A stretch of DNA of 64,000 nucleotides from Bugula neritina (taxonomy: Eukaryota > Animalia > Bryozoa): positions 2,574,741-2,638,740 of the forward strand of contig OZ037768.1 in the NCBI GenBank assembly GCA_964035545.1, in the 5' to 3' direction. Each line of letters opens with the position of its first letter. The first letter of the stretch is position 1. This document shows positions 3,277 to 62,090 of the stretch, one piece after another. The notes under the pieces were generated by a model that was not told the DNA's origin, ran no database searches, and saw only the letters and a list, made by a program, of their open reading frames with translations. The position numbers and the translations under genes were made by a program.

Positions 3277-8416
<5,140 letters not shown>

Positions 8417-9279: not shown

Positions 9280-11820
<2,541 letters not shown>

Positions 11821-15865: not shown

Positions 15866-15889
15866 TTTAGGTCATAATTTTTTCCTTCT

Positions 15890-16885: not shown

Positions 16886-16939
<54 letters not shown>

Positions 16940-17783: not shown

Positions 17784-17788
17784 ATCTA

Positions 17789-20700
17789 ATGGCAAGAGCC
17801 TTGAGGCAACAGTCACCTCAATCTCCACTGGATAGGGAAGGGTTTCTATGTCCCATGTGTCTGCAGGACCTAGGAAGTGCTGCTTCACTCGCTAATCACT
17901 TTGACAATGCTCATAACTCTACAGAAAGCACAGATGTGATAGACCAAGTCAAAGGCTGGTTTTATTGCTAGTAGTAACTTCAAAAAGTTAATGCCTTCAT
18001 TGTTAGGCATTGACTATTTATGCTTTTTTGTATTTACTCAACTATAGTGTGAAACATGTTGCCTAAAGTTTGCTTGTGAACTTTTACAAATTATAAAAAT
18101 GAAAATTGATCAGTCAACTAAATGAAAATTTAAGCTGTGCACTACTGTTATAGTAATTATAATGACTTTTTTCGTTTATCAATTTTAATTTATATTGCTG
18201 ATTGATTTGTAGGATTTTTCGGTAAAGCAAAAAAGTTTTTTGCGTTGGAGGACGAAGCTAATACAGAAGTTACTACTTTTAGAGCTGAACCTGTGACCAC
18301 AGTTGCAGCAGCTTCTAGTATTGAATTTTTCGAGCCACAGTGTTTAGGTACTTTATTCTAGCTACTTGGAAGTATACATTGAAGTGAACTAAACCATGGC
18401 TAATATTTAGTTATTTCATAGATACGTTCTTTTCTAGCTCTATTTTGGAGTTGTTCTTGATTACAGATTTGTCTGTGTTTGTATTGCTGATAACCATTTA
18501 ATAATTGACAAATGATTTATATCTATTATAAGGAAGTACTCTAAATTGTTATCAGATAATCTAATTTTATATTGTTTGATATAAACTAGCATCCATTTAT
18601 TAGAAGATTTTATCATATATTATAGCTGCTTTTGCAGTTAAACATATTCATACTAATTAGCTATTGTTTGTTGTATACATATGAGCTCACATATTGGGTT
18701 TTTCTATTTTGCAAGTTATAAGATAATTTTTCTGTATCATATCTACGGTTTCAAGGTGATGCTTCATTGTTTTTTATTTTGCAATTCAGAAATTGTCTAC
18801 CCCAATCATTTAGGCTCTGTTCTTGGCAGTTGCGATCCAGAAACTGAGTGGCTTCTCTAGCATGTCCCAGTCTTCTTTTTGGCTTCCATAAGAGAGGCAC
18901 CAGATGACCACTCTTACTGAGTTATTCTAAAATCCTTAACTATTTGCACCCATGAGCTTAGCAAAAAAATGTTGCCAGACCAACATGGATTTGCTTCCCC
19001 ATTAGCACCCGATCCAATAGACATGTACATATGTATTGATCTGTAGCTCTCGCTATTTCTAATTTACAATGTGTTGCAGTTTGGAGGTGGTTGTTTGTAG
19101 GAAAGACTAGAAATCTAACAGATGGTTTCAAAGCAATGCGAGACTCTAAAGTAGACCAAACTGTTATAGAATGCAACAAACTAGTTATTAGACTATCCAA
19201 ATTATCAGCAGATGATCTGCCTGAAGACAACTCCAAACGAAAAGGTTTGAGAGTCGTTTTCCCTTTAAATATCCAGCAATAAAAGTTAACTGCTTTTATA
19301 TTTGCTACTCTAGAGGCTATTATGTTGTATCTTCCACTTTTTATGAGCTGTCGGTGATTTTCAAGTTTTAAAAGAAGTTATTAGTTTAATCAGGATAAAC
19401 TGGGAGTCACACTGAGTATAAAATGTGTTTCAATGCTGATTTATAACATTAGTTTTCACTTCCTTCTCTTACCTTAGCTTTTTATTTTCAGTTGGCTAGT
19501 TGCAGTCAATTTCTAAACATTTTTAAAAAGTTTATGTAAGTCTGGTTGTTTTTTTAGCTTTTGAGCAGAGTGTTGTAAGATGGGCAGAAGATGGGTCGGT
19601 TAAAGTATGCTCCACATGTGGCAAAGGATTCAACATAGCCCGAAGGCGTCACCATTGTAGGCTTTGCGGTGGCATTATGTGTGATAAATGCTCGGAGTTT
19701 CTCCCCCTTTCTCAAGCAAGTGGGTAAAAGTAATTTTGGTCATTATAATAAAAAATAATGAATGTTCAATTGATTATAAATTAATTTCTCAATATTATAA
19801 ACAATACAATGTGTGTATATCTGTATTTGTACGAAATGACAAGTTTGATGCTCAAACAGTTTATTAAATACCTTGTTTATATCTATTTGAGAAAATCTTG
19901 ATAGAGTTACAACTTCATAACTATTATGACAAAGATTCTAGCTTTTGCAACACCTTGTAGTAATAATTTGTATGTCATTTTACTATATGATCATAATACA
20001 TTATTATTCTAATGTATATTGCTATGGTAATATTATAAAACAGTGTTTATGATTTCAATAGGATACTACTAGTGCACCCTGAAACATTCTATACAGTATA
20101 TCAGTTTAACAAGAAACACCGAAATGGGCAATGTTTATGTTATGGAAAGCATATTTACCTTAAGCAGTAGAATAATTAAAATTCGAATTTGCACAAGTAA
20201 ACTAGAAAATATAAATAATTATATTTTTTGCAAATATATTTTTAGGTATTAAATTTTTGCTTTTATCATACCTGCATGACCTCTGAGATATTATTATATT
20301 TGTGTGTTGGCTATTATAGATTTATATTCATTATTTGATTTTATTAGAACGTCTCACTACTTCAGTCACCAGCTCTGAGCTGACCATCTCCCAGCCTGTG
20401 TTTCTAAAGAGAAGTGGGAGTAATAGTAGCCTTAGCTCATTAGGTTCTAAAGAGGAAGGCCTTGCTCTTCGACTTTGTGCAAACTGTAGGAAGCTGTTAG
20501 AATTACACAGATCTAAGCAAGAACAGCGACATTTTGTGCCACCAATAGCAGAACTTTATGAGGTATAGTCATGGCTTCTCTTCAACAGTTTCAAACTGTA
20601 TTGTGTGAGATTGTTCCGTTTGCTTTGTGAATGGCTTAATATTTATACTAGAGTTCTGTTTGCAAAGTTTCTGTAGACTTTCTTTTTCGATGAGATACTC

Positions 20701-26537: not shown

Positions 26538-29500
26538 ATGAGTTCAACTTCAATTTTATCTTCAGAAGAACTTGGGAAAATGAAGGTAAACTAAAACTAC
26601 ATCTGTTGAGTCTCAGTATGAGTATAGACTATAGAGTGAACTTGATTTATAGATTAAAATTTTATGGTTACTTTAGCACCATGATGGTGGTATTTTTGTA
26701 AAACTTTTATTTTTATTTAACAATTGCATAATCATAATGATAATGATTACCATTATAATAAATATAATCATAATCATAATGATGGTGATAATGATAACGT
26801 CAATAATGAATAAATATTGATAATCATAATCATAATGCTACTCATATTGAATACGATAAAATCTGAATGATGATGGTTCAGGCTACGGTCAAGAATAATC
26901 ACTACTTGTGGTGGCTACAATTGTTATTGTCATAATTGAATATAGCTATGCACACTGACAGGCAACCTAACTAGTAACTTACTCTTAGGTCTAACTTATA
27001 GTTATAGGGCCTAAGTTAGGTATCACTATCAGTATCAGCATGAACATCAGCATGGCTTATGATTATCACTATGACTATAGCCATAGTCTATGACATAATT
27101 AAGAGTTTTGCTTAAACCAGCTTCAATATGAAAATTTTGTTTATTGTATTTAATATATTCTGTTCAGGTGCCAGACCTGAAGAAAGAGTTAAAGACAAGA
27201 AACTTGTCCACGTCAGGTAACAAAGCAGAACTTCTTGAGAGGCTAGTAGAAGCTCTGAAGACAGAAGAAGGTAACTCTAAACATTCCTGTTAGGTCACAG
27301 CTTATTATCACCATAAGTAGGTGCAGCCTGTAAGACAGTTGGTGTTAGGCAGGTTGTTAGTACCTTTGACACAGTTACTCCAAGACAATTATGCAATAGT
27401 AGCTACATTTACCTGGCTCTCTTATTTACCTTTGGATAAAAGAAATGATTTCATGCTCTGTGCTTCTTGGTTATTTGATCTTCCTCACTGCTGATTACAG
27501 CACTACAGAATATTTTCAATGTTATATGAGTTTACTTAAACTGACAATGTTCTGTTTGCTTACTTAGCTGAGGCATTGCTGGAAGACGGAAGTGCAGATG
27601 ATGAAGTATCTTTAGATAAATTAGAAGAACCAGTGGCAGAGTGAGTATCGCTGACAATCTGATTATTTCTTGCTCTGTATAATAATAATATGCTCTAATT
27701 AAAAGACGAAGGTAACTCAAATGTTAGAAGCAGATATACTTTGAGTAAAATTTTGACTTGTGTGCTGCTGTTCTACTCTCTGTACACTGACTTAATTGAC
27801 TACCTGCATGTTCATGTTGAATAAACTTTACAAAATTCTACTCAGTAGGTAATAAAACCATATATGAAAGCCGATACGTGTGCTTATAGGAAAGTTCTGG
27901 ATACAGCAACTGTTGAGGGTGCTAGTGACCCTGCCGCTGCCGATAAAGCAACACCCAAGGCTACTCCGGCAGCAGCTAAACCTGTGTCAGCACCCCAGGC
28001 CAGCAAAGCCGAAGAGACAGATAAACCGGCAGCAGGTGGTGATGCTAAGGATACAGAGTCAGTCACAGCCGAACAGGTATGCAGTCTTACTCCTTATCTC
28101 TAGTCAGTATCTCTAGTAACTATTGCAGTAATATGTGATGAGTAACTTTTGTTATGTAGAAAAAGTTATCTCGAGCTGAAAGATTTGGAATTGTCACTGA
28201 TGAAGATGCTAAGTCTAAGAGAGCAGAGAGGTGAGTTTGCTATGCAGTACTCTGTACCCAGTACTCTGTATCCAATATTTTGTATTCAGTCTTATCACAT
28301 ATTGGAGTCATTTTCCCGAGCCAACTGTGCACTATTGAGAGACAGCATCTCACCCCAATAGACCCTCATAGTGTTGACTTCATTTGCTATGATCTGCTAG
28401 CATTGCTGACTTTTATTTGTAAACCTGAAGTGCTGTGAAACTCTGATTAAGGTTATATATTGGTCATAGGTTGACACGTTTGCATTTACTTTATAGGTTT
28501 GGTATCGTCAGCGACGAAGAGAAGAAAGCACAGAGAGCTGCCAAGTGAGTCTTATGTTATACATTGTAATAGTCTGCTGGTGCTCTCTGGGGTAAGGAGG
28601 GGGGAATTCCTGACTCTGACCCATCTGCTGAATATTCTATATTAATTCACATATGTCTATAAGTACCAACTGGCTGTTTATGTAAAGCTGTTATTGTGAA
28701 TAACTAGAAGTTGCCCTTCATGTCTCATTCACAGTGTGTTTTAGGACGATTCCTCTTTACTTTACTTGCAGGTTTGGACTGTCAGAAGATACAAAGTCGG
28801 ACAAGCAAGATGACGAGAAGAAATCAAAGAGAGCTGAGAGGTAAATGTTGTTATGTTGCCCATGGCAACATGGCATGCTGCAATTTACTCTCAGCAAGCA
28901 CCTTGACCTAGCTAAAGTCTCTTCTGGCTGTCAAAAACCTGTGTGTGTTGGTCACATGACTGAACGCTTGCTTAGAGTTTATTGCAGCGTGCCTTGCTCT
29001 TTGCTCTGAGAGGTAATATATCATGAGTATTTACTATCTGAGGCTACTAACTTGGAGTTTATTTTTGTAATCTAAGAATTCACATTCAAGTTTTACGGCA
29101 ATATATGGACATGCATGCATTGTTTACATGAACTTACATAAATAATATAACATTTACTGGGGTCTGCGTAGATTCTGATCTTTCCGTTATAATGATTCTG
29201 TATCTTACTATTATTCATGCAGGAAAAACTATACTAGTTAGGCTACTGAGTCTATGTAGCTAACTCATTTACCCCAGTGTTGGCCATGCTGTAGAATATT
29301 CCCATCATATTTAGATTTGGAGTTGTCTCCTCGGCTGCCAATGGTGTCTCCGCTGGCAAAGAAACAGAAGAGATGAGTGAGGAAGCGAGACAGAAGCTAC
29401 TGAAGAGGAAAGAGCGGTTTGGTGAAGTCACGTCAGATGTTGCTAACAAGGTATCCTTCCCACTCTGTCTGCTCCGCCCACTCTGTCTACTCCGCCCATT

Positions 29501-30338
29501 CTGTCTGCTTTGCTCACTTTTTTTGTCATTGTCTACACATACTATGCTGAAAATGTGATCACCAGTGTCCGGTTCCCTTGTGGCTGAAAGTTGGAAGCAG
29601 TGGAAGATCTCCCTTGTTCAGATGATGAGGGTTTAGATCTCCGCTATTGTCAATTTCCTGCAGCTGCCATTTGATCTCACCTGCATTGGTTCTCCTAACT
29701 TGCCTTGGTTACTCAGAAGTTCTTTGTAAGACTTGTGACAAAGGTCTTTAGGCTAATGAATAACTGTTGGCCAGATCTTCGTGGCAGAAACTCAATAATA
29801 AGTTTAGTGCCAGTTTCCTCACAGGCTGATTACTAGGGAGGGGGGGGGCTGTTGGTGTGTGTGCATTGTCAGTGTGCAACACATTTTAGATGGCATAATG
29901 ATTCAGTTCTTGTGTTCTATGTGATCATCTCTCCAAACCAACTTGACTCTCTCTATATTCTATCTACACTTTATCTATGCTTAACCTCCATTCTACCTAC
30001 ACCTAACTTAAAACCTACTTAGACATTTTTGCAGCCACAACTAACTACCCATCTGATTTTCTCTTTGATTCAGGCTGACACAGATGAAAAGCTTAAACAG
30101 AGGAGTGCTAGGTTTGGGGCAATATCAGGCCCAGCCCTGACAGCTGATGAAGAGGTAAGTTTGAGTTATAAAATCATTTTTATTCTGAAACGCCTTTATT
30201 GTCTTTTCAAGTATCAATCTTATTTGTGTAATACTAGCTGTTCTCTAACTGATAATGCAGTCTGTCTCTGATCTTATTGTCTCATTGGTTTTGTAGGCTA
30301 GAAAGAAGAAAAGACTAGAGAGATTTGCAGCTGCATGA
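26538..30338 (+). CDS. SARNP: SAP domain-containing ribonucleoprotein (CIP29/Tho1), 285 aa
   Basis: Exons 26538-26585, 27168-27270, 27568-27640, 27890-28076, 28160-28230, 28497-28544, 28772-28840, 29315-29450, 30074-30154, 30297-30338. SAP domain MKVPDLKKELKTRNLSTSGNKAELLERL, then seven R-x-x-[RK]-F-[GA] repeats. Confidence 0.92.
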
Positions 30339-31730: not shown

Positions 31731-32636
31731 ATGGGAAACTCATGCTGTGCATCACGAAGTAATCGAGTTGCAGATATTGGTATCGTAAATGCTGTTGCCG
31801 TGGGAACAAGCCTTCCTTCTCTTCAAGAATCAGCGCATCAAGTAGACTTCGAGCAGCAATGCTATGATGGCCGCTCTACTTTGCAATTACAGACACCTGT
31901 TCATAAATGTGACTTTGGGCAGCAGTGCTATGAAGGTCAATCTAGGCCAAGTTCAGTGAAACAACCTAAGAGAAATGTTGTACAGGTAGTTAATAATACT
32001 ACAGCAGCTGATGGTTACCCTATCAGCGACATTGAAATGGTGATCATGATGTGCAAAGAGTTGGAAGAAAATCTTTGGCGAAAATACGGGGCGTCTGGTG
32101 ACGGCCTAGGTAATTTGTAAACTATTTATCATATATATTTAAAAAGTTAGAAATGTTTTTGTTAAATTAGGCTTGCATTAGCAAAAAATATTCTGAGAAT
32201 GTTCATAACACATGTACAATTATTGTATTGTTACTCCAGTCGCACATAGTTCTGTGTGCATCTGTTGAAGCAGGCAGTCTTTAACCAGCCATGTAAAGCT
32301 GTTACCTGGTGCAATCAGGGAAGGACAAGTAATATTATTAGAATCTGTAGGGTTCCATTTCCAGATGAACATTAGGATAAGAGCAGAGAGAATGCTCTAT
32401 TGAAGTGCCATGGCTCCTATTTTGTGTTGTTATATTAACATATTTGGCTTTTTTGTTTACTAGGTCAGAAAGTGCATTCTGTGTCAAACGAACTACCATC
32501 TGATGTTTTTCGGGATATTAAATACAATATAGTACGAACAAGGAATCGTTTGGTGCATGACCTTCATGTCAATGGACTAGGAAATCAAAGAAGTGATTTT
32601 ATCAAAACTTTCAACCGAGTGAGATACCAGCTGTAA
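31731..32636 (+). CDS. Unannotated protein 'HEPN-A', 183 aa: N-terminal acylation motif plus C-terminal HEPN (DUF4145-like) putative RNase domain
   Basis: Exons 31731-32109 and 32464-32636, phase-1 GT-AG intron. Starts MGNSCC. C-terminal domain DIEMVIMMCKELEENLWRKYGASGDGLG|QKVHSVSNELPSDVFRDIKYNIVRTRNRLVHDLHVNGLGNQRSDFIKTFNRVRYQL; RNRLVH at 32541-32558. Paralogue on the opposite strand. Confidence 0.8.
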
Positions 32637-34230
32637 CATGTTTTTATAATTTTATTATTACATTTGTCAAGATTTGAAAATCTCAATTTTTAAGACATGC
32701 AAAAAGCAACTAGGAATAGTGCATAGTCAATTAGATAAAAGCATTAATACTTATATTTATAATATTGAAACATGATAATTAGGTTACTGGTTGTATTTAT
32801 TATGCCATAATTCAAATGTTTTTTCCAACATTTGCACTTACCAGAGATGTTATTTTTACATTCTATTATGCCTGTGGTAAATGCAGCTGAAAATCGTCCT
32901 TATTATATTTTTTTACTGTGATTTAAATATACTCTGCTCAAAACTTGTCTCCATTAGAAAGTAGGTATCTTATTTTATTTTACTGCCTGGCAATTTCTAT
33001 TCTTAGTGTTGTGGAACTTGTATTATTTATACACATGTTAGTTCTCAGAACAATTGGGAATTCGCTTGCAATAATACAAACATGAGACTGACTTGCTGCT
33101 AATATTGACCTTTACAAGTAGCTTTCAGCTAATTATTTTAGATACTAAATTGTAAAATCTCTCTTTGTTGTTGACTGTCTCTACTTACTGTTTGTTTATC
33201 GCCTAAAATGGAAACTTTAACATCACAACTTCATGTGTCATTTTTTACCCTGTAAATATGCACTTTTTACTTGCCAACTCTGGTCCTGTTTTTTTTTCAG
33301 ATCCACATGCTATAATTAGATTATAATAAACATTTATAAATTCTGACAGATTTAATTCTACATCACCACATTCCATCTAGCAGCACTGGAGACCAGTAGC
33401 TTGTTATTTGTTTGCGATTCTATAACGTGTATCTCAATGCTGACTCACATAAAATCTGTAATGTTTGCTATTAGCAAGAATGGTTAATGTTTAGCCTCAG
33501 TTGAAAAGTCATGCTGCCTCAACTTTGAAGAAATACTGTATATAGTGAGTAACACGAATACCATACATGTCCATTTCAATATTCACTGTGATCTTTCCAT
33601 ACACTGGAGTCATTACACAGCCTCTTTCAGTGATGAAAGGCAATGTGTGATTTGCTTATCACTAAGTTTAAGCTTGAGATAAGATCAATTTTTGCTCCTC
33701 TAAAACAACCTTGAAAATGTGCTGATACGTATAAGTTACATGAGCAAATGATAAGAACTTGCAATTTATGCAAAGGGAATCCCCTACCTAGGAAATTACA
33801 GGCAGCAGATTTATTTTCAGTCATTCAGCTTGAGTAAATTTGTTTTGTTGTATACAAAGGGAAAGAAGAATGGCTAGTATTTGTGCTGAAATGTTAGGAG
33901 GCAAAAACTAATTGTTGCCAATACATCAATACCTATGATCACTATTATAAGGCAGGTATTGGGCTAGTTAGTTACATAATACATACTCCACAACAGATTG
34001 AAAAGTCATTCACTATTTAGCTTCTACCAGCTGTTAGTATACATGCAATCAAATTATAACATGATGTCATATTCAAGTTTCACTCAATGATATCTGATTC
34101 CATATTATGTAATATTGTTATTGGCTTATTTTTTGAAAAAATTAAGTTTGAGTTTGACATAAATTCTACTAAACAGCACTTCTTTTTATAGTGTCTTTAT
34201 GCCTATCTTGTGTAGATTAGCTTATAATTG

Positions 34231-34290
34231 AAAAATAATTTCCCCCACTGGGAATCGAGCCCGGGTCCTCTGGGTAGACTCAGCACTACA
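34231..34290 (-). repeat. Internally deleted copy of the tRNA-like repeat at 53297-53400
   Basis: Reverse complement reads TGTAGTGCTGAGTCTACCCAG-AGGACCCGGGCTCGATTCCCAGTGGGGGAAATTATTTTT and matches both ends of the 53.3 kb copy. Confidence 0.75.
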
Positions 34291-34331
34291 ATAATTAACT
34301 TTTAAAAATCAAGCCGTGAAGCAGTTCTTCT

Positions 34332-35523
34332 TCAAGCTAAAGCAGGAAACTCTTTCTCGGTGAAAATCGGATGACTTGATTGTAAATTCACTTTACTGTT
34401 GTTCACCCATTGCATAACTTGCTCAAAAGATATCCTGAAAGTTTGTCGTTGCCTTTCATGTAGACTATTGACATCGGAGCCATGCACAAGCAGGTTTCGA
34501 AGCACCACTATGTTCATTATTACGTTGAAAATATATTCTGGAATTCTGTTTGACACAGATTTTAGTTTTTTACCTAAAAATAAGTTTTAAGAATTACTCA
34601 TATAATAAAATCTAGATATCAAATTTCTTAACATATCAAAGTTGTAAGTATTATGTGGAATATGTGCAAACTAATGGATAGTTTGAAAATAGCTAGAATA
34701 AAAGTATTTTACAACTTTAAAGCAAATGAGAATTATTTTGTGGCCATCACTTGTTTAAACTACTCAATAACCACCTAAAACTATCTAATGAAGAGCCCCT
34801 TCTTGAATCATAGCTTGATATGATATGTTGAAAGGTGTAGACAGAATTTTCTTTACCATTCTACTGCCGTGTGATCAGAAATTGATTTATTTCAGTGCCT
34901 ATAATAAAATTAGTAGTAGATATTTTACCTAGACCCTCTCCGTGAGCTTCATAGTTTTCTTTCAGCACAGTTTCCAGCTGCTTAGTCATTTTCACCACCA
35001 TTTCAAAGTCATTGTTGTGGTACTCATCATAAGCTGCCCCTACCAAGAGATGTAGTGGTTTTCTCTGACTCACTTTAGTCTCATATTTGTTAGATCTCAC
35101 AACCTGTGCAAGGGTTGGTTTTATGTATTCAGTTTGTGTATAGGCATCACGTTTTACAGCCCATTGGTGAGATGCGCTAACCCTGACTGCTGCCGGTACT
35201 ACTGCTGCCTGTGGTAAGTGTTCACCAGGTGGCAAGTGTCCACCTGGTTGTACATGTCTACCTGGTGGTACGTGTCCACCTGGTGGTACGTGTCCACCTG
35301 GTGGTAAGTGTCCACCTGGTGGTAAGTGTCCACCTGGTGGTAAGTGTCCACCTGGTGGTACGTGTCCACCTGGTGGTAAGTGTCCACCTGGCCGTACGTG
35401 TCCACCTGGTGGTACGTGTCTACCTGGTAAGTAACTTTGGGCAGATCTAGTTGGCTGCCATTCTTCATCAGATTCCGACAAACCTTCAGTACTGTCGCCA
35501 AGACAACTGCCTGTATTTCCCAT
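34332..35523 (-). CDS. Unannotated protein 'HEPN-B', 278 aa: N-terminal acylation motif, (PGGH[LV]P)x12 repeat, HEPN (DUF4145-like) putative RNase domain and C-terminal EFPALA
   Basis: Exons 35523-34929 and 34573-34332, with a phase-1 intron at the same codon as in HEPN-A. Starts MGNTGSC. Domain DFEMVVKMTKQLETVLKENYEAHGEGLG|KKLKSVSNRIPEYIFNVIMNIVVLRNLLVHGSDVNSL...; RNLLVH at 34499-34482. Confidence 0.8.
35215..35430 (-). repeat. Coding 18-bp minisatellite, 12 units, in HEPN-B
   Basis: Plus-strand unit CCACCTGGTGGTA(A/C)GTGT, encoding PPGGH(L/V) on the minus strand. Confidence 0.95.
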
Positions 35524-40235: not shown

Positions 40236-43200
40236 CAAATGCTTGGGGCAATAATTTTATTTAGTATTAGGAAGCAAAATACTAGTAGAATTACCTTCAT
40301 AGCTTGTTTAAAGTGGCGTAATGCAGACACGTTGTAGAGCTCATTGAAGCCTGGTGATTGGCTGAAGTTTTCAAACATACAGTCGTAATACGCAGGTATT
40401 AGTGCCGTCATTAAAATATCACCTTCAACATAGTAGATAAACTATAGGCTTTGGACCTTAGACTGTAAACTATATACCGTATAATGTAGACTGTATACTA
40501 TATACTGTATAATGTGTAATGTATACTGTATACTGTATACTGTATAATGTATACTGTAGACTGCATACTGTATACTGTATAATGTATACTATACATATAA
40601 TGTGTAATATATACCGTATACTGTATATTGTGTAATATATACCGTATACTGTATACTATATACTGTATACTGTATAATGTATACTGTATAATGTAGACTG
40701 TATAGCTACTATATTATACTGTAAGCTAAATACTCGATAAGCTTTTTAATATAATCCGCAACTTGCATCTTAGACTCGCGAATAGATGCTAGTGTTTTTT
40801 CACAATAGTGTACTACTCTATAAGCTATAAAATTACATAATGAGTTGAAAATAATTACTTTGTGCATGAAGAGGTATGCTGACTTCTTCTACGACAGCCC
40901 CTGACTCTCTCAGTTTAGTAATCACATGACTCATTACAGACTTCACACCATCAGAAGCTTTTCCAGAACCTTCTTTGACATAACCAAACTTTACTCCAGC
41001 TAAATCACCTGTCAGCTGAATATGTCATGAGTATAATGAATTGATATAACGCAATTACTATTTTAATTACTGATATGAGTTTAAGTCAACTTGAGACCTA
41101 CCAGTTGACTATATTTTGGTATGACTAAGTGAGGATTCTGCCTATGATCTCTACCATCATCATATCCTGCAATGACCTCTAGTAACTTAGCCACATCAGT
41201 GACATTAGAGGCCATTGGGCCCAGGTGGTCAAAAGATGGTTCCATGCCTGTAAGATAATAAGCAGTTCTAATTAAAAAACATACATTGTATGATTATTGG
41301 TTTTATAAATTATAATAATTATAGTAATATTTAAAACTAACTATTGTTATTAGTAGATATTTACACAACTACTGTAAATGCAGATATGGTATTTCTATAT
41401 ATTTAAATTATATAATAAATAACAATTATTATATAATGTAGAGTCCTATACACAAAATGCCATCATTTCTATAAAAAACTGCTTATGAGCCAAAATGCAT
41501 ATACATTTTTTGTTTCAAACACAGTTTAGAATCAATGCAAATTATTTGGTGCAAGCAAGTGATGATAACATTATTTAATATTATATATATAGGCTGATTT
41601 TCTTAGTAATGAGTCATAGTTTAATTATTTATACTTGTCTAAAATATAATTGCAACTTTATATAATATAATGTTGTATAATTTTATCTATTGAAGAATAT
41701 AAGAAACTATTATTTTCATTCTGTGAATGAGATGAAGATAAATAGGCTCATATTTAAGTAATGCAATTGTTATTATTATGTTATTCTACTCTACCTAAAG
41801 ATCCAGTTACAGGAACTAAACCAAATGTAGCCTTAAGTCCTACACAACCAGACCAACAGCATGGCATACGAATAGACCCTCCCTGATCACCTCCAATAGC
41901 CATGTCCACTTCACCGGTTGCTACCTGCAAGGTTTCTAGCAAGGTTTTTGCTATCCTTGAATATGATTTCATGAAATCAAATAATAAAATTGTTTTACAG
42001 TTTCACATATGCTAAGTTGATAAAGTACTAGTTGAAGCAACTTGGAACAACTTTTTTGTGATCTTAAAATAATATTCTGTAAAACCTACCAAAACAGCAC
42101 TCCCAGAGCTGGATCCACCTGCAGACCTGGTGACATCATGAGGGTTGGGTACTGGACCACTCGCACTGGTGAAACTGTTCCCTGAGCAACACTGGTTCTC
42201 ACAAGTTGACTTTCCAACAATGGTCCCACCTATACATGTACCATGAGCGCTATGAGTAATCTCATTTGTGTCTTGCAGTTTGATTCATGCAGCAGCTTTA
42301 AAGTTTGTTGGAATTTATATTGCTTTTTGCAGCTACCACTGTGCATCATTTTAATAAGAATGAGATAATCAAATGCTGCTACTTTTTAAACTCCTAAACT
42401 TATAACCAAAACAATTTCTGTTTAAGGTAAGATAAAGAGTATAAACTATAATAGTAAATTTGTTCTTAGTTGTTATTAATTTCCAGTGATCCATCTGAAA
42501 GCTAAAACATTTTCACTCAATATTATTAGATGCTTTTTTGGTTGTTTCCATTTTTCTATGCATTAATGAAAGTTTTTAAGAGAAAACTTTGTGTTGCCAA
42601 ATTAGTTTGCTTCTATGAATGATGTCTTAACCTGCTTGCAGTATTCTAGTAACGACTGTAGCATCAAACTCTGGGGTGTATCCTTCCCATATTTTAGATC
42701 CATTTGTTAGTGGAGTTCCAGCAATAAACACATTGTCTTTTATTGCTATTGTTTTTCCAGCTAAGATTCCAGCATTTTCTCCTTTGATTTCCATTTTAGT
42801 TGCCCTCAAAAGAGATAATAACTCCACCCAATAATATAGAAAATTGAATGACAGCTATGCATGTTTGAATTTTTGTGACTAATATGTTATAGGTTTTTTT
42901 ACCAGGTATTGTAGGGGTTATCTTTTCTTGCTGGTTTCACTCCTGGAGTTCTTGGATACAAAACTGGAATTGTTTCCTCTTCAATTGACCGTAAACCATC
43001 ACATGTCTTTAGCCAAGTGTTGATAACTTCTGTAAAAATATTTATGGCTAATAAACGTACCTTCTTTTTATGACCTTTAGCTATTAACCATACTTCCCTC
43101 CAACGTCAGCCTGATAAATTTCTAGCCACCATTTATTAAAAAACTCAAACTGCTAACAATAGATGGCTCTATAATTTATTTTCTTAAAATTCATGCAGCT

Positions 43201-44210: not shown

Positions 44211-44968
44211 TGAGTTGTAAAATAGACAATACGTCCTACAATTTTCTATTTGATAAGTAAGTTGCTAATCCTATAAGTGCTGGTAATAAGAGTTTTATAA
44301 AAAAAAGAACCCAGCTAGTACTGCTTATTAATGGGAAAGGGTATATTAAATAAGTGTAGAGCTTTTTTCAGCTGTTTTCTAAATCATTTTATTAACAGCT
44401 GACTACTCCGTGAGCTTCCAACTACTCACATGAGGGTTGGAGTTGTTATACCCTAGCCATGTGTGCCCATATCGGCTACTTCAGCTTTTCAGTGTTTGTT
44501 CAAAATTTAGCAACAATTTTGGGCTAAAAGAGTTTCCAGGGAAGGGAGGCTATAAGAAAATTATGCCTAGTCATTGTCAAATGACAACTAAATTTGTGGT
44601 TTCTCTGTATAGTTCTAAAAGCATGAAGTCCTTCTCTGCTTATCTTTATCTACTGGGTAAATACAGCATCTAGGCAGTGAATGTAAACAAAAACTATTAG
44701 CAGGTATTTTGGAGTTGTTCTCTTCTTACAGGTTATGGCTGAGTGTTAAACGCAGACTACAATGCGTTAGAACTGCATCTTATAAAAGCACTATAGCATG
44801 TATTACAGAAATTAAGGGATAAGCCATGACATGGTTGTATGACTAGTTTCATTGTAGGAATATTGAATAATCTGCTCTGTAGCAACATGACCTAATAATA
44901 TGTGTATTCTTACACATGTATAGTGTCTGGCTGACTACATCAGGTGTCTGCATGCAGTTGTTAGCCTG

Positions 44969-45609
44969 CTATCTGTCAGCTATCTGTCAGCTATCTGTCA
45001 ACTATCTATCAGCTAGCTGTCTACTATCTGTCTACTATCTGTCTACTACCTGTATACTATCTGTCTACTATCTGCCAACTATCTGTGTTTACTATCTGTC
45101 AACTATCTGTGTTTACTATCTGTCAGCTATCTGTGTTTACTATCTGTCAGCTATCTGCCAAATATTTGTCTACTATCGGTCAGCTATCTGTCAGCTATCT
45201 GCCAAATATTTGTCTATTATCGGTCAGCTATCTGTCAGCTATCTGTCAGCTATCTGTCAGCTATCTGTCAGCTATCGGTCAGCTATCTGTCAGCTATCTG
45301 TCAGCTATCTGTCAGCTATCTGTCAGCTATCTGTCAGCTATCTGTCAGCTATCTGTCAGCTATCTGTCAGCTATCTGTCTACTATCTGTCAGCTATCTGT
45401 CAGCTATCTGCCAAATATTTGTCTATTATCGGTCAGCTATCTGTCAGCTATCTGTCAGCTATCTGTCAGCTATCGGTCAGCTATCTGTCAGCTATCTGTC
45501 AGCTATCTGTCAGCTATCTGTCAGCTATCTGTCAGCTATCTGTCAGCTATCTGTCAGCTATCTGTCAGCTATCTGTCTACTATCTGTCAGCTATCTGTCA
45601 GCTATCTGT
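44969..45609. repeat. 11-bp satellite (CTATCTGTCAG)n, about 58 units
   Basis: Direct observation; it generates the spurious SAICQLSVSYL ORFs. Confidence 0.97.
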
Positions 45610-45749
45610 TCATTTTCTGTCAGCAGCCCATATAGCCATAAAACTTGTCTAGATGATAGAATACACGTGCAGCTGAGTCTGAGTTGATGTCATATTTATT
45701 ATATCCAGGAGTTAAAGTATACAACATAATAATAGTTTATTTTACTCTT

Positions 45750-48700
45750 TTATTCTGTCATCAACTTCTCAACTCCGTAGGCAATGTCCAGAAGTTTTGC
45801 TTCCTCAAAATGTTTGCATACAATCTGTAAGCCAACTGGTAGAGGTTTGGTACCACCCTAGAAAATTCAGCTAACTGTGTTAATATTCATACACTCAGGT
45901 GAACAGTGCTAAGCACAACAGCATCCAAATATAGACTTTGTAATTCTAATCTATACAGAATTTAAACTAGCTGAAACAATATCTGAATTGTCTAAATTCT
46001 GCCCAATGATTACTGTTTTTCCAATTTATATTAAAATTATTATTAAAATATCTGTAACTAAAAACTGAAACTATGTTAAAGTATCACATTTATACTCATA
46101 GATGTTCTCTATAATGACCATCGACCACAAACCAATCTGTCCATTTATATATTGTGAAGGAATACTTACATCATCTGGTTTAACTTTTCCCACATTCAGA
46201 GACAAGGCAGGATGTCCAGTTAAATTGAAGGGAGTCACGTTGACTACTGGAGACTGCAATGCTCTGATAAACTCTGCAGAGTGTAATAATAATATATCAA
46301 TAGTGTGTCTAATAGGATTCTTATGTTAAGTACAATATGAAAAGCATTTCCTGGTTTGCAGGTCATAAATCAAGTGCCATATACAATATACATATTTAAC
46401 TCTATTATGAAATTGTCAAAAGTTATTGAATTGTTGTATTGTTTCTTGTGAACTATTATATACTGAATCATCAGAATGGTTCAGAAGAGAATAAACAACT
46501 TAAGTTTACTGTTTGTTTAAAATAAAATATTTGGTTAGTATAGCAGGTTTTACTTGTATATAGAGTTGAATACTTTAGAACTAAAGCAAATGAAGTTCAG
46601 AATTTAGGTTAATCAAACAGTTTTCAAAACATAGACGGTGTAAAATCAAAATAACAACATGAGTCAAATTTATTTGAATATAGACAGAATTTCACTCAAA
46701 GTGTGGTTCATATAAAACATCAGCTCCTCATTTTTGTTCAAATTTCCAAGTATTGACAAGATAACGTTCATAGCTACTTCGGTTGTGTTACCAGTCGATA
46801 AACCAATATAACAGTACATCAAGACTACCTATTCGTCATGGAATTCAGGGAGTGAAAGATTACCTTTAGGTGTAAGATCTAGGGGTGGCAGTTTTACAGC
46901 AACAAATGGTATGGTAGGCATAATCAAGGCATCATATTTCTCTAAGACATCATTGTATGCTTTTCTCAGTGTAGGTCTACAGTTCATTGCTCTAGCAACT
47001 ATCTGGCTTCCTTGAATTTACCAAAAATATTCTTTAAAACTAGCACTAGAAGGTTTGAATAAAATAAATTGATCACGTTATAAGAAAAATAACTGTTTGA
47101 TTCAATTGAATAGTCTTTTACTGTTAACAGTTTTGAAATTACCATCTTTTTTTCTGATAAATTCTCCAAACATTGTATAAGCTTTAATCGAAGGTGGCAT
47201 ATCGTGAGCTCTAATCTGTAAAAAACCATGAAACGCATTCCTAAACTAAATACAGGCATTTTTCCAGTTGAATCTGTCTAAAGATTTTATTTATTAACAG
47301 CAGAAGCAATCATAGCCTCACATTCAGTTATTTGGAACAATCTTATTACAAACTTGTAATTTAGTCCTGGCCCTGTTACAGCAGAATCAATAAATATATC
47401 TGAAGACTTCTTTTTGGACACAATTAGTTCTTTTAATTTAGAAGTTGAAAAGTTCAAGGTCAAGATTGGATGAAGTCGCATATTAAAGTCACATTTACAT
47501 GCCATTTGCTTTAATTTCACCTAGATTACTTCTTAAATCTTGAAGTTTATATTACCTGCAAAGCTTGCTTGAAATGACGTAATGCAGACACATTGTACAT
47601 CTCATTAAAACCTGGTGGTTGGCCATAATTCTTAATCATACTTTCATAGATTGCTGCCAGCATTGCCATACTTATAGGTCCCCCTTTCCAATAGTCAAGC
47701 AGCATTAATTCATTAGGCTATTTTTAAGTGTTAATGCATTTCTCAATAATGTGATGAGCATTAACAAATCATTTTTGCTCTTTATTGAGATATGTTTAAG
47801 ATGTTCAAACTTCATATAAAATTGGAAACAAAGTAATAGTCTTGAAAGACTAGGAGTTAAACAGCGACTATTTTAAAACTTATAAGGAAACAAAAAACAA
47901 TCAATAAGTGTCTAATTTTTTTCATACTATAAACTATTAAATTTTAATAGAAGTTACTTTGTGCATGAAGAGGTATGCTGACTTCTTCTACGACAGCCCC
48001 TGACTCTCTCAGTTTAGTAATCACATGACTCATTACAGACTTCACACCATCAGAAGCTCTTCCAGAACCTTCTTTGACATAACCAAACTTTACTCCAGCT
48101 AAATCCCCTGTCAGCTGAAAATATAAAGAGTAATTAATCGATCTAATGTAATCATTATTTAAAGTTTAATTATATGAGTTTTAGTCAACTTGAGACGTAC
48201 CAGCTGACTATATTTTGGTATGACTGCGTGAGGATTCTGCCTATGATCTCTACCATCATCATATCCTGCAATGACCTCTAGTAACTTAGCCACATCAGTG
48301 ACATTAGAGGCCATTGGGCCCAGGTGGTCTAAAGATGGTTCCAAGCCTGAATTAAATAAAGATAAAAACCATTGTATGGTTGGTTATACTAGACTAATCT
48401 TTGAAATTAATTAGTATTAGTTGATAGCTTTACAATTTACTTGGCAAATATATAACGTGGGCATTATTTTATATGTAATACAGATAATAATTATTACCAA
48501 ATTAAGATATTAAGTGTTAGATATATGTAATGTTGAGCTATATGCACATATCTGTTTTATATGAAAAACATGGATTTTTTTAATGAGATTAGCTTTAATG
48601 CAGAGCATTTGGTTTGAGTTGATACTATTTGCAGCCCTAACTGATTGTACCTAAGCTAATTGCCCTAGCTATTATGACTATAAATTCATTCAACCTGACA

Positions 48701-50983
48701 GCTACTCCCTGAAATATAATGGCACAGCAATTACTGGTACATGTTGCTTTTACTGTTACTATTACTTTTTACATTCTGTCTATGGAATAAAGATTTTTAT
48801 TGTTATATTTTCTACTCTACCTAAAGATCCAGTTACAGGAACTAAACCAAATGTAGCCTTAAGTCCTACACAACCAGACCAACAGCTTGGCATACGAATA
48901 GACCCTCCCTGATCTCCTCCAATAGCCATGTCCACTTCACCAGTGGCTACCTGCAAGGTTTCTATATAGCAAGGTTTTGCTATCCTTGAATATGATTTCA
49001 TAAAATCAAATAATAAAATTGTTTTACAGTTTTGCATATACTAAGTTGATAAAGTACTAGTTGAAGCAGATTGAAATAACCAATATGACTTTTTGGTAAA
49101 TAAAGTGTGATCTTGAAGTAACATTCTGTAATACATACTAAAACAGCACTCCCAGAGCTGGATCCACCTGCAGACCTGGTGACATCATGAGGGTTGGGCA
49201 CTGGACCACTCGCACTGGTGAAACTGTTGGTTGAAAAACACTGGTTTTCACATGTTGACTTTCCAAAAATAGTTCCACCTACACCGTACAGTGTAAAGCT
49301 ATGGGAGCTTTGTGTGCTGGCCACAGTATAGCAGGTATGATTTAAATCAAACTACACGAAATTATTCTACCTGAGAGTAATTTAATATCTTTTTGCACGA
49401 TGTGGTAGTAAGTAATAAAATCATGAATAAAGGGTAGTAAAATTAATATGTAAATCTTAAGTTAAGCTGTTCAGTAATAAATTTCACAAAATGGCAACTG
49501 AATTTAATGATCACATGCCAAAATTAAACACGTTGATTTAATTAAAAGGATAAAATGTTTCACTGGAAAGCTTTTCTAATATGAATAATGTCTTAACCTG
49601 CTTGCAGTATTCTAGTGACAACTGTAGCATCAAACTCTGGGGTGTATCCTTCCCATATCTTAGATCCATTTGTTAGTGGAGTTCCAGCAATAAATACATT
49701 GTCTTTTATTGCTATGGTTTTTCCAGCTAAAATTCCAGAACTTTCTCCTTTTATCTCTACTTTAGTTGCCCTAAAAAAAGTTATAACTCCACACAATATT
49801 TATGGCAAATTGAAGGACAGCTACATGTTTAAATTTCTTTGAATAATATGTTATAGGTTTTCTTGTTACCAGGCATTGTATGGGTTGTCTTTTCTTGCTG
49901 GTTTCACTCCTGGAATTCTTGGATACAAAACTGGAATTGTTTCCTCTTCAATTGATCGTAAACCATCACATGTCTTTAGCCAGGTGTTGATAACTTCTAT
50001 AAAAATATTCATGGTTAAGAAAAGCACCAGGGTTTGTATCATCCTCATTTAGTAATCAACTTTCCTCTAACATTACAGCTCTAATGTCAGCATGATAAAC
50101 CCTTAACCAGCTAGTTTTTATTTGCAAATTCAAACTTTAAGCAAAACATGGCTCTATCAGCTAAAATGTAATCTTGGCTTCAATATTAATTTTGCTGTTA
50201 ATTTATTTGAACATGAAGTCTGAGTGTTTGAACAAGCTACTATATTAAATAGCTGCCACTACAGTAAACACAATAAAACTATCTTATATAACACTAGGTC
50301 TGTGACAGAAGACTTGCAAATAGCTGAAAAATATAAAAACATTTATCATCATGTGACCTACAAAGTTCAAACATGGTTATAATTTACGCTCTCAACCATT
50401 GGGCTAGCACAACTTCTAGAGTTATATAGAACTTATTAGCACACTGCTATAGTAAGAAATAGAAATCAAATGTGACTCAAGCACTGAACAACGTGCCAGT
50501 TTACCTATAGGCCTACATACTCTTTGATATATGACTTAAAGTAACAACAACTATACAAATTTGATAGCAAACCACCATTCACCTAAATACTCTTTGATTT
50601 GGTCTTCATTGATTCCAAGATTGAGATCTGCTGAAATCTGAGATAAATCTGCAGAAGAAGCTGGTTCAACCAAAGGGATATCTGCAACATAACAAAACCG
50701 TGGGGTGCTTTGGTATAATCATTTAAATATTTCTACGGACCTTACTAGTGGACAAAATATTAATAACTTTGCCCAATCAGCATCAATATTACAACTTATT
50801 CGTTCAAACCGGTTCAAACCTGTAATTCTTATTTATCCATTCAACTCAAATGTAACTTGGCATGTTTTGCCGGTTTTCCCAATTTTATATGCTAAAACTC
50901 TAACTAGTGATTGTAATCTACTGCATATTATAACACATCCACTTAATACCTCTCTACTTACATGACTTTCTCTCTCCCTCCAT
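45750..50983 (-). CDS. Amidase signature-family enzyme, CX3C type, paralogue 2, 517 aa
   Basis: 13 exons: 50983-50962, 50681-50583, 49996-49870, 49770-49598, 49278-49139, 48950-48821, 48346-48201, 48114-47958, 47683-47556, 47215-47143, 47010-46864, 46273-46170, 45857-45750. Same exon structure and catalytic motifs as paralogue 1. Confidence 0.92.
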
Positions 50984-53296: not shown

Positions 53297-53400
53297 TGTA
53301 GCGTTGAGTTTACCCAGTAGCTCCCGTGGTGTAATGGTAGCACACTTGCCTGCAAGCCAGAGGACTCCGATTCGATTCCCAGTGGGGGCAATTATTTTTC
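53297..53400 (+). repeat. tRNA-derived repeat (pseudo-tRNA at 53320-53390 within a larger dispersed element)
   Basis: Acceptor stem GCTCCCG/TGGGGGC and the D-arm pair, and a TTCGATT loop is present, but the anticodon and T stems do not pair. Flanks are shared with the copy at 34231-34290. Confidence 0.7.
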
Positions 53401-61730: not shown

Positions 61731-61735
61731 AATAA

Positions 61736-62044: not shown

Positions 62045-62045
62045 T

Positions 62046-62064
62046 TGGTGGCAGCGGTGGGATT
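62046..62064 (+). other. Primer-binding site for tRNA-Leu
   Basis: TGGTGGCAGCGGTGGGATT is complementary to the 3' end of tRNA-Leu(AAG/TAG), ...AATCCCACCGCTGCCA-CCA. Confidence 0.88.
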
Positions 62065-62090
62065 CTGAATACTAGTGTAAGAAGAACAAG

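Follow-up and report, generated by a model that had tools for sequence, protein, structure and literature searches.

A lineage-restricted, probably acylated HEPN-like protein of Bugula neritina with a young, SERBP1-like C-terminal tail

The gene HEPN-B, which lies in the 64,000-nt stretch of Bugula neritina DNA analysed here (the window), appears from its sequence to encode a HEPN-like protein that is restricted to its lineage, is probably acylated and carries a young C-terminal tail. Exon 2 of this gene, tail included, is under purifying selection, and HEPN-B is, judged from its reading frame and its relatives, a real gene. The protein ends in FPALA and thereby resembles the C-terminus of the ribosome-associated factor SERBP1, which docks on RACK1. 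We consider this ending to be a young, copy-specific tail whose likeness to SERBP1 is probably coincidental, and do not regard it as an established ribosome dock.

HEPN-B comprises two exons on the minus strand (35523..34929 joined to 34573..34332), which by open reading frame and translation give a product of 278 aa, with the splicing deduced from splice-site consensus, frame continuity and comparison with the paralogue (Table 1). Exon 1 encodes the MGNTGSC start, followed by an acidic stretch and the PPGGH repeats; a linker then leads to the first HEPN-like helix (...DFEMVVKMTKQLETVLKENYEAHGEGLG). The donor of exon 1, read on the minus strand, is CTAG/gtaaaat. The minus-strand open reading frame 34332..34556 forms part of exon 2 and ends ...SSHPIFTEKEFPALA, followed directly by the TGA stop. 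HEPN-A, a paralogue of 183 aa, lies 1.7 kb away in convergent orientation and carries its intron at the same position and in the same phase; the two proteins are 43-44% identical over exon 2 and 46% identical over the ends of exon 1.

Table 1. Positions of HEPN-B and HEPN-A features in the window
Feature	Position	Strand	Details
HEPN-B exon 1	34929..35523	-	ATG at 35523; 198 codons + 1 nt; ends ...GEGLG
MGNTGSC codons (Gly2, Ser6, Cys7)	35503..35523	-	Predicted N-myristoylation and palmitoylation signal
PPGGH(V/L) hexapeptide-coding tandem repeat	35211..35428	-	18-nt unit, 12.1 copies (Tandem Repeats Finder)
HEPN-B intron	34574..34928	-	GT..AG, 355 nt, phase 1; acceptor tttttag/GT
HEPN-B exon 2	34332..34573	-	Second half of HEPN-like domain and tail; TGA stop at 34332-34334
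RNLLVH codons, Rx4H motif	34482..34499	-	Residues 224-229; alignment and regex
HEPN-B C-terminal extension NNSKVNLQSSHPIFTEKEFPALA	34335..34403	-	23 residues, no counterpart in HEPN-A (alignment)
EKEFPALA codons and stop	34332..34358	-	FPAL = residues 274-277 of 278 in HEPN-B
HEPN-A exon 1	31731..32109	+	MGNSCCAS...GDGLG
HEPN-A exon 2	32464..32636	+	RNRLVH; ends ...FNRVRYQL-TAA; no extension, no FPx[LF]

The dual-acylation consensus consists of Met-Gly, a position-6 residue that is small or bears a hydroxyl, and a Cys nearby; the MGNTGSC start fits it, as does the MGNSCCA of HEPN-A. Myristoylated and palmitoylated at this signal, HEPN-B may be tethered by lipid to the cytosolic face of a membrane; a literature search for myristoylated eukaryotic HEPN proteins returned no papers. 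At the PPGGH repeat region, 193-212 nt were skipped in the contigs of relatives, and we infer that this region is a flexible spacer of variable length.

Close relatives of HEPN-B in other sequencing runs allowed the constraint on exon 2 to be measured. One orthologous contig from another study (X3 record 12, the same as X4 record 17) is 95.7% identical and spans 34285-34589 without gaps, showing 13 differences. Twelve of these could be placed, one in the 3' UTR and 11 in coding sequence, and 8 of the 11 coding differences are synonymous, the remaining three being N to S, E to D and N to D; at least 8 synonymous changes among 11 would be expected with P = 4e-4 to 2e-3 without constraint. Over all orthologous contigs together, 11 of 15 variable coding sites are synonymous. 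Within the FPALA codons themselves, all three changes (34335, 34340 and 34344) are synonymous among contigs ~95-99% identical (P = 0.02-0.04 without constraint), a comparison that comprises four runs, at most three samples and two studies.

The residues R, N, L, V and H of the candidate catalytic motif are invariant in all three aligned sequences, RNLLVH in HEPN-B, RNRLVH in HEPN-A and RNQLVH in P0005, a short protein from a public collection. The published HEPN motif is Rx4-6H in which the Arg is followed by a polar residue (N, D or H), and it is described as lying where helix-3 ends and the loop to helix-4 begins. The HEPN fold is an up-down bundle of four helices. The domain of HEPN-B was folded as two separate halves, by exon, with one confident helix in exon 1 (residues 41-60 of its 67-residue C-terminal piece) and a pair of helices in exon 2. 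For exon 2 the AlphaFold2 model (mean pLDDT 68), built on an alignment of only three sequences and thus of limited weight, predicts a helix 13-31 that ends in R26...H31, then a loop and a helix 40-67. The predicted position of RNxLVH at a helix end thus matches that published for the HEPN motif. An upstream acidic residue, typically within Ex3[KR], is described as conserved in the HEPN superfamily, and HEPN-B has the Ex3K sequences EMVVK and ETVLK upstream and a conserved Glu in the preceding helix; HEPN-A and HEPN-B agree in the Glu of L-E-x-x-L.

Profile and structure searches gave signals below significance. When Pfam profiles were run on the second half of the domain (exon 2), DUF4145 scored 18.3 bits (E 0.0025), below its cut-off of 23.1, and HEPN_RiboL-PSP scored 15.3 bits (E 0.019), below its cut-off of 28.4; HEPN-A and P0005 matched no HEPN family in Pfam. 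PADLOC and NCBIfam returned nothing relevant (HamA1 reached E 0.013 on exon 1), and in the ESM Atlas the nearest named clusters were of Csm6-type HEPN at 0.90, which serves as a lead only. A Foldseek search of the PDB with the exon-2 half-model gave no match at E <=0.001, and its top rows, helical hairpins of ribosomal proteins, were set aside as uninformative for a two-helix model. From the motif at the end of its helix and the sub-threshold Pfam scores, the C-terminal helices probably form a small DUF4145-like HEPN domain. Like HEPN-B, DUF4145 (PF13643) and RiboL-PSP-HEPN (PF18735) have an Rx4H with Asn after the Arg, the motif before the last helix, an upstream Ex3K and a small size of ~90-100 residues. 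Descriptions of DUF4145 come from bacteria, archaea and dsDNA viruses, where it occurs in fusion with restriction or helicase modules, whereas HEPN-B resides in an intron-bearing, animal-type genome and has, in addition, a predicted N-terminal acylation signal, the PPGGH repeat region and its C-terminal tail. Such a domain would cut RNA without metal through its Arg/His pair, probably after two domains pair. RNase L and Ire1 are eukaryotic HEPN-type RNases, as HEPN-B is predicted to be, and in these KEN-domain RNases the metal-independent catalysis is described as involving the Arg, the polar residue that follows it and the His; HEPN-B, in contrast, has neither a kinase nor a pseudokinase module, and its sequence shows no detectable relation to them. 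Ire1 is membrane-bound, and its likeness to HEPN-B in membrane attachment would extend only to the outcome, with a predicted lipid anchor in place of a transmembrane helix.

The original prediction described a C-terminal extension of about 20 residues that is absent from HEPN-A and ends ...IFTEKEFPALA-stop, and both statements proved correct: 34332-34358 comprises exactly the stop and eight codons, and by alignment HEPN-B has 23 extra residues because HEPN-A stops at ...FNRVRYQL. The DNA of this tail has no further repeat copy in the window, and a sequence search of the PDB with the 23 residues gave no matches at E up to 10. In the exon-2 model described above, the tail is predicted to be unstructured (residues 72-80 coil, 75-80 with pLDDT <50), so the FPALA ending would be accessible. 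We further estimated how often such an ending arises by chance, using generic amino-acid frequencies of our own choice. The expectation for FPxL is 2.0e-4 per position, or ~5% for a 278-aa protein, and the six-frame translation of the window contains it at 1.95e-4 per residue. For FPxL within the last 8 residues the calculated chance is ~1e-3, and 3 of the 1960 stop-terminated segments of >=20 aa in the window have it, HEPN-B being the only one of the 1960 (six frames) that ends FPxLx-stop. The exact ending FPALA has a calculated chance of ~1e-6 per protein; chance nevertheless keeps its place as an explanation because the ending was picked post hoc, among very many windows and many recallable motifs. 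A literature search for the string FPALA gave nothing relevant by title among the matches listed.

Comparison within the family showed where this ending occurs. Two contigs (X2 record 8 and X3 record 13 / X4 record 18) match the window only over 34316/34321-34351/34353, a stretch made up of the final-residue codons of HEPN-B, the stop and the first part of the 3' UTR, and then diverge; read on the minus strand, the loose ends of X2 record 8 and X3 record 13 align with the HEPN-B tail. These contigs of a sister paralogue lack 4 nt immediately ahead of the TTT codon and end ...IQSNHRRCTESFLL-stop and ...ILSTHHKSTESFLL-stop. The sister paralogue thus reads ...TESFLL-stop, and the FPALA frame there has a TGA two codons before the Phe. 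FPALA may accordingly owe its origin to the gain or loss of 4 nt close to where the reading frame ends, and the new end may or may not have gained a function. The contig of a further paralogue (X3 record 14 / X4 record 19) continues ...M-YMMNVEKVIL. A phmmer search, run exhaustively against 1.84 billion representatives, returned 11 matches at E <=0.001, and among the four of these examined one was a true relative, P0005 (53 aa, 58% identity), which ends ...NLQSTHAVFTIIS (...VFTIIS), an end known from the protein record alone and possibly a prediction artefact. The first part of the extension, KVNLQS[ST]H..FT, is common to other family members, and the end after that Thr differs in each member seen (EKEFPALA, ESFLL and IIS). 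Conservation of the tail, which the original prediction had named as a test, therefore holds in part, with FPALA kept in close relatives and absent from HEPN-A, the sister paralogue and P0005. On the aligned sequences, FPALA is specific to the HEPN-B copy and its closest relatives and is not a feature of the family, and the likeness to a ribosome dock may therefore well be a coincidence.

Searches for further relatives yielded none: 192 + 150 pattern matches in metagenome contigs for the DNA of P0005 or other relatives gave no confirmed case, and candidates for full-length relatives among longer proteins by exon 2 query (0/48), for relatives among near proteins by residues 105-201 of exon 1 (0/10) and for longer relatives by the HEPN-B/HEPN-A/P0005 alignment (0/330) were all negative. 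The family seems to have at least four copies in the lineage of this genome and almost nothing in public protein collections. HEPN proteins often serve conflict or stress roles, and by analogy this family may serve a lineage-specific role of that kind.

In the 3' flank of HEPN-B, ~60 nt past its stop, we also observed a short, very abundant interspersed repeat (34229..34273) with a look like a tRNA T-arm. A second copy lies in the window at 53357-53401 (89% identity), and the summed contig depth over the repeat was 5,000-18,000 vs roughly 20-200 in its flanks in all four runs. ARAGORN found no tRNA genes in the window and Rfam gave no match to it. Derivation of the coding tail from this element was considered and rejected, the abundant repeat sitting beyond the stop and outside the tail.

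Binding of FPxL to RACK1 has been shown structurally for the SERBP1 C-terminus, ZAK and LARP4 (Nature 2025, PMC12823453), where the SERBP1 residues involved are F404 and L407 of 408, with 393-408 modelled. The class, given as FPx[L/F] with FPxF in RNF10, targets a hydrophobic pocket on blades 2-3 of RACK1. The motif named in the original prediction, an acidic-FPxL sequence, is thus borne out in its FPxL part, while the acidic prefix is not named in the motif descriptions for RACK1 binding in these sources. HEPN-B and the SERBP1 C-terminus both place FPxL and one further residue before a free C-terminus, in a segment that is unstructured in SERBP1 and predicted to be so in HEPN-B; the FPAL of HEPN-B has the same register as F404/L407, with an Ile 6 residues before the Phe (compare V398 of SERBP1) and a Pro at -7 from it, against P396 at -8 in SERBP1. 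Residues 406 and 408 of SERBP1 are presumably those of FPALA as well. HEPN-B shares only these five terminal residues with SERBP1, which is described as an RG/RGG-rich, disordered hibernation factor with further handles in the mRNA channel and on 60S H79; no HABP4_PAI-RBP1/Stm1-type domain was found by Pfam on the HEPN-B exons. The motifs of ZAK-alpha (FPPLIK, residues 417-422), LARP4 (FPxL) and RNF10 (FPxF) are internal, whereas that of HEPN-B is terminal, and the motifs of ZAK, SERBP1, LARP4 and RNF10 are reported to be evolutionarily conserved within their families (ConSurf). ZAK and LARP4 have a second, RACK1-interacting helix that works with FPxL, while SERBP1 manages without one; a regex for the pattern of this helix (S-aromatic-A-x-hydrophobic) found it in neither spliced HEPN-A nor spliced HEPN-B. 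Mutants of the ZAK motif still bind polysomes, the motif being needed for activation and not for binding (PMC12823453). In the SERBP1 preprint, putative FPxL motifs are reported on 4.5-6% of ribosome-detected proteins and are also noted in mRNA-decay factors, and RNF10 activity is reported to require its motif; among proteins that gain ribosome association after SERBP1 removal, motif proteins are 3-4x enriched (16-24% vs 6%).

Several readings of these data have to be weighed against each other. That the open reading frame is non-functional, a pseudogene or chance frame whose tail means nothing, could appeal to the deduced splicing and to the failure to find any annotated or predicted full-length protein in protein collections, but we judge it very improbable given the synonymous excess (8/11 in one orthologous contig and 11/15 over all), the intron position and phase kept in two paralogues with GT..AG intact, and the MGN...C and RNxLVH kept between copies just 36-44% identical. 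A quite unlikely reading is that the domain is no HEPN RNase but another helical module, such as a degenerate ankyrin-like pair or a protein-binding bundle, in which RNxLVH would be structural and the tail unrelated to RNA. The only significant PDB matches of exon 2 are indeed DARPins (E 8e-5, IVVLRNLLVHGSDVNS vs ankyrin '...LLEHGADVNA'), most matches from the 1.84-billion library are of ankyrin type, P0003 and P0013 being such repeats, the HEPN Pfam scores are sub-threshold and Foldseek gave nothing at E <=0.001. Each single ankyrin stretch is nevertheless insignificant (independent E >=32), and an ankyrin identity of exon 2 was rejected because the DARPin totals are sums over repeats; Pfam reported no ankyrin families with the E limit raised to 5. 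Ankyrin repeats are 33 residues long and have a conserved Gly in their '..HGA(D/N)(V/I)N' turn; neither HEPN-A (HDLHVN) nor P0005 (HNPNVN) keeps this Gly of 'HGADVN', whereas the Arg, Asn and His of RNxLVH do not vary, and the place of that motif, where a predicted helix ends, fits the description of HEPN.

The alternative closest to the original prediction is that FPALA is a working RACK1 motif that inserts its Phe and Leu into the blade 2-3 pocket as SERBP1 does, in competition with SERBP1, which we regard as conceivable yet doubtful. The pocket is established for FPxL of ZAK, SERBP1 and LARP4 and for FPxF of RNF10, and the enrichment of motif proteins on ribosomes once SERBP1 is removed is in line with such a role. 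The same points speak against coincidence: five terminal residues and the C-terminal register match SERBP1 (~1e-6 per protein), with Ile at -6 like V398 and a Pro near the position of P396; the tail is predicted to be an accessible coil; the changes in FPALA codons are synonymous throughout; and by analogy docking on ribosomes would be a plausible function for an RNase to have. Absence from paralogues is also compatible with a function in HEPN-B because short linear motifs often arise and vanish fast. On the other side, FPALA is not kept beyond ~95% identical sequences and is missing in HEPN-A, the sister paralogue and P0005, the ribosome binding of ZAK relies on other contacts while HEPN-B has no second RACK1 motif, competition with abundant SERBP1 would be required, and the base rate of FPxL is high for an observation selected post hoc. 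A young, copy-specific ending with a probably coincidental likeness to SERBP1 therefore remains the reading that we prefer.

If the tail does bind RACK1, an effector RNase would join the RACK1 hub, and the case would show how a 4-nt shift of frame in a single member of a young family can create a short motif overnight. In its fullest form, which we consider unlikely, a lipid-anchored animal HEPN RNase would have gained FPALA by a 4-nt frameshift, would plug the RACK1 pocket on the 40S head in competition with SERBP1 and would cut RNA on membrane-proximal ribosomes; recruitment of a nuclease by way of the RACK1 FPxL site would then be seen for the first time, and the birth of a motif by frameshift would have been caught in the act. 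The pocket is a newly recognised shared dock for ZAK, SERBP1, LARP4 and RNF10, and no nuclease is among the clients described in these sources. If the likeness is a coincidence, it offers a useful caution, as a five-residue identity to a validated motif is expected occasionally in a large scan. Regardless of the tail, the family is unusual, in that an intron-bearing, animal-type genome encodes a HEPN-like domain of a type described from prokaryotes and their viruses, together with a predicted dual lipid anchor and a variable His/Pro/Gly repeat; there are several paralogues, yet the 1.84 billion representatives contain practically no relatives.

The minus-strand open reading frame at 34332..34556 terminates SSHPIFTEKEFPALA-TGA and closes HEPN-B, a two-exon gene with a predicted spliced product of 278 residues, and positions 34332..34358 comprise its stop and the eight codons EKEFPALA. 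When the exon-2 products are aligned, the convergent paralogue HEPN-A ends FNRVRYQL and lacks the entire C-terminal extension, while HEPN-B carries 23 more residues, NNSKVNLQSSHPIFTEKEFPALA, so that the EKEFPALA ending and the extension of about 20 residues confined to HEPN-B among the window's two paralogues, as originally predicted, were borne out. The introns of both genes share position and phase, after G-[DE]-G-L-G (G-D-G-L-G in HEPN-A). Both N-termini (MGNTGSC in HEPN-B, MGNSCCA in HEPN-A) have Met-Gly-Asn and a Cys within positions 5-7, an arrangement typical of proteins that are N-myristoylated and palmitoylated, and dual acylation is predicted. About 12 PPGGH(V/L) repeats are present in HEPN-B and absent from HEPN-A; contigs of relatives skip 193-212 nt at the underlying tandem repeat, and the repeat number therefore differs strongly among close relatives.

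Coordinates of HEPN-B, HEPN-A and neighbouring features in the window
Feature	Position	Strand	Remarks
HEPN-B exon 1	35523 (ATG)..34929	-	ends EAHGEGLG, donor G|gtaaaat
HEPN-B intron, predicted, 355 nt	34928..34574	-	acceptor tttttag|GT
HEPN-B exon 2	34573..34332	-	
HEPN-A, 183 aa	31731..32109 + 32464..32636	+	paralogue, tail to tail with HEPN-B, 1.7 kb apart
18-nt tandem repeat, 12.1 copies, 90% matches	35211-35428	-	encodes His/Pro/Gly-rich PPGGH(V/L)
Exon-sized frames	27849-30268	+	include SEEARQKLLKRKERFG and DTDEKLKQRSARFG
45-nt element, tRNA T-arm-like	34229-34273; second copy 53357-53401		
Two tandem exon sets, Pfam Amidase	41084-42854 and 47947-49351	-	fatty-acid-amide-hydrolase-like; from Pfam
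Long minisatellite, LSAICQLSVSY-type repeats	44883-45687	+	three frames open; from sequence
Single 507-codon open frame, ~15 C2H2 zinc fingers	57022-58545	+	TGEKP linkers
Gag-like and aspartyl-protease frames of an LTR retrotransposon	ORFs 62076-62996, 62960-64000	+	runs off the window

The window has a GC content of about 0.33 and belongs to an intron-bearing, animal-type genome. A Pfam scan of 95 of the 117 stop-to-stop frames of at least 70 aa (the other 22 overlap repeats or run antisense to a submitted frame) returned fragments of exon size from a GH65 glucosidase, a GST, rabenosyn, a tandem pair of amidase genes, a long array of C2H2 zinc fingers and a gag-aspartyl-protease retroelement. 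The two amidase exon sets represent a local gene duplication, the zinc-finger frame is typical of animal KZNF-like arrays, and GC rises from about 0.33 to 0.48 at 60001-64000, the region of the LTR retrotransposon. The minisatellite is probably non-coding tandem DNA. The frames at 27849-30268 resemble, we presume, a SAP-domain ribonucleoprotein (SARNP/Tho1-like), and Pfam gave no match on these exon-sized fragments. ARAGORN called no tRNA at the 45-nt element, whose summed contig depth was 5,000-18,000 in all four sequencing runs (X1-X4) versus roughly 20-200 in its flanks; the element probably represents the core of a highly abundant SINE-like repeat.

DNA contigs from the two studies that produced these four runs were compared with the HEPN-B locus. 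In the second study, X3 record 12 (identical to X4 record 17) covered 34285-34589 with 13 differences and no gaps (95.7% identity). Twelve of these could be placed, one in the 3' UTR and 11 in coding sequence, the latter comprising eight synonymous changes and three replacements, all conservative (N to S, E to D, N to D); the probability of at least 8 of 11 being synonymous without constraint is 4e-4 to 2e-3. When the orthologous contigs of all four runs were pooled, synonymous changes accounted for 11 of 15 variable coding sites, and the last 23 codons held three synonymous changes and one replacement. This pattern indicates that the HEPN-B frame, tail included, is under purifying selection. 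Within the FPALA codons, differences among the four runs occurred only at 34335 (GCT to GCC), 34340 (TTA to CTA) and 34344 (CCT to CCC), all three synonymous (P 0.02-0.04 without constraint); given the exon-wide synonymous excess, this is not specific to the motif.

X2 record 8 and X3 record 13/X4 record 18, which represent a paralogous sister copy, match the window only from 34316/34321 to 34351/34353, a stretch that takes in the final codons, the stop and the first part of the 3' UTR. Beyond it, manual minus-strand reading of their loose ends gave a sequence that aligns with the HEPN-B tail (..Q-S-x-H......T-E), and the sister copy is four nucleotides shorter directly ahead of the TTT codon. 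Its homologous frame reads IQSNHRRCTESFLL-stop in X2 and ILSTHHKSTESFLL-stop in X3/X4, the last residues being approximate (substitutions in the short matched stretch are not itemised) and the frame difference firm, while a TGA two codons ahead of the Phe closes the FPALA frame; a single 4-nt insertion or deletion thus separates it from FPALA. Other contigs of X1 and X2, about 80% identical to 34371/34372-34587 and continuing through 237 nt into an exon-1-like piece (35091-35202, with joints at which the match goes back), suggest a further paralogue elsewhere in the genome, in which two HEPN-like domains may stand in tandem. A separate paralogue contig (X3 record 14/X4 record 19) reads on as M-YMMNVEKVIL.

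An exhaustive phmmer search with HEPN-B exon 2 against 1.84 billion representatives yielded 11 proteins at E ≤0.001, and the family is almost absent from public protein collections. Four of them were inspected: P0003 and P0013 consist of ankyrin-type repeats, P0009 is another repeat protein, and P0005 (53 aa, 58% identity, RNQLVH, ending KVNLQSTHAVFTIIS) is a true relative, the sole member of its cluster and derived from one metagenome contig of 3,093 nt. The remaining seven are 739-2711 aa long with 4-8 matched stretches each. Judging from the aligned members, the tail up to H-x-(I/V)-F-T is a family feature, and the residues after that Thr differ in every member seen (EKEFPALA, ESFLL, IIS). 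Tail conservation, proposed with the original prediction as a check, therefore held only at short range: FPALA is kept in close relatives and is absent from HEPN-A, the sister copy and P0005.

The domain itself showed mixed affinities. RNxLVH keeps its R, N, L, V and H unchanged across HEPN-B, HEPN-A and P0005 (43-53% overall identity), and AlphaFold2, given the aligned exon-2 products (3 sequences; mean pLDDT 68), predicted a helix at 13-31 ending in RNxLVH, a loop and a helix at 40-67, followed by a tail modelled as coil with pLDDT <50 in its last six residues. In the HEPN literature the Arg is followed by a polar residue, and an Ex3[KR] lies further upstream; for the latter HEPN-B offers EMVVK and ETVLK, at the end of exon 1 in a confidently predicted helix. 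On exon 2, Pfam gave DUF4145 at E 0.0025 and RiboL-PSP-HEPN at E 0.019, both scoring under the cut-offs, and found no HEPN family on HEPN-A or P0005; an ESM Atlas feature search gave Csm6-type HEPN clusters at 0.90, a lead only, PADLOC and NCBIfam returned nothing for the domain, and Foldseek with the exon-2 half-model found no match at E ≤0.001. Weighing both sides, we file the domain, originally called HEPN, as HEPN-like and nearest to DUF4145, with membership not proven. A sequence search of the PDB with exon 2 retrieved designed ankyrin repeats only: IVVLRNLLVHGSDVNS (exon 2 residues 15-37; 34482-34530, minus strand) mimics the ankyrin consensus (E 8e-5), also retrieves ankyrin proteins from the 1.84-billion library and is a trap for automatic annotation. 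An ankyrin identity was rejected, as single stretches were insignificant, no ankyrin Pfam appeared at E ≤5 and the paralogues do not retain the ankyrin Gly.

Generic residue frequencies predict FPxL at 2e-4 per position (in about 5% of proteins as long as this one), within the last eight residues at about 1e-3, and the exact ending FPALA, presumably also the terminal letters of SERBP1, at about 1e-6. The six-frame translation of the window gave FPxL at 1.95e-4 per residue; 3 of 1960 stop-terminated segments had it in the last eight residues, and FPxLx-stop occurred only in that of HEPN-B. The ending is rare for one protein; with very many windows scanned and a large choice of motifs that might be recognised, a scan should produce one or a few coincidences of this kind.

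In the accessible parts of the published accounts, the ZAK motif FPPLIK (417-422) sits over RACK1 blades 2 and 3, and LARP4 has FPxL in common with ZAK and SERBP1 (PMC12823453); a preprint adds RNF10, with FPxF, and places putative motifs on 4.5-6% of ribosome-detected proteins and on 16-24% of those enriched upon SERBP1 removal (10.64898/2026.08.26.747346), and such short motifs take the same RACK1 cleft (Mol Cell 2026). The original claim that acidic-FPxL motifs bind RACK1 stands for FPxL, and the same parts of these three sources state no requirement for "acidic". The C-terminal FPxL of SERBP1 in that claim was confirmed at -5 to -2 (PMC12823453), exactly the register of HEPN-B. At -6 from the Phe, the position of V398 in SERBP1, HEPN-B has an Ile; its Pro lies at -7, compared with -8 for P396 of SERBP1.

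We lean slightly towards HEPN-B being a small RNase of HEPN type, tethered by lipid and belonging to a young family restricted to its lineage, whose FPALA would be a recent copy-specific tail with a SERBP1 identity that is coincidental or not yet functional; the protein would be held by its lipid anchor, may cleave RNA, and would need domain pairing for activity. That the FPALA end is instead a functional RACK1 dock, as first proposed, is the less likely, though still live, alternative. The shared register, the aliphatic residue at -6, a tail that is accessible in the model and purely synonymous changes in the FPALA codons speak for docking, and an RNase placed on the ribosome is a coherent idea; against it, FPALA lacks deeper conservation, HEPN-B shows no second RACK1-binding motif, abundant SERBP1 would compete for RACK1, and ZAK motif mutants still bind polysomes (PMC12823453).

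Neither the FPxL motif class nor the HEPN superfamily is new; what is new is their combination in HEPN-B, an HEPN-like protein of animal type with an intron in its gene, predicted dual acylation, a variable His/Pro/Gly repeat and a SERBP1-type ending. As matters stand, these sequence comparisons present FPALA on HEPN-B as an intriguing resemblance on an orphan gene, and RACK1 docking of this protein would, if true, be of real interest.
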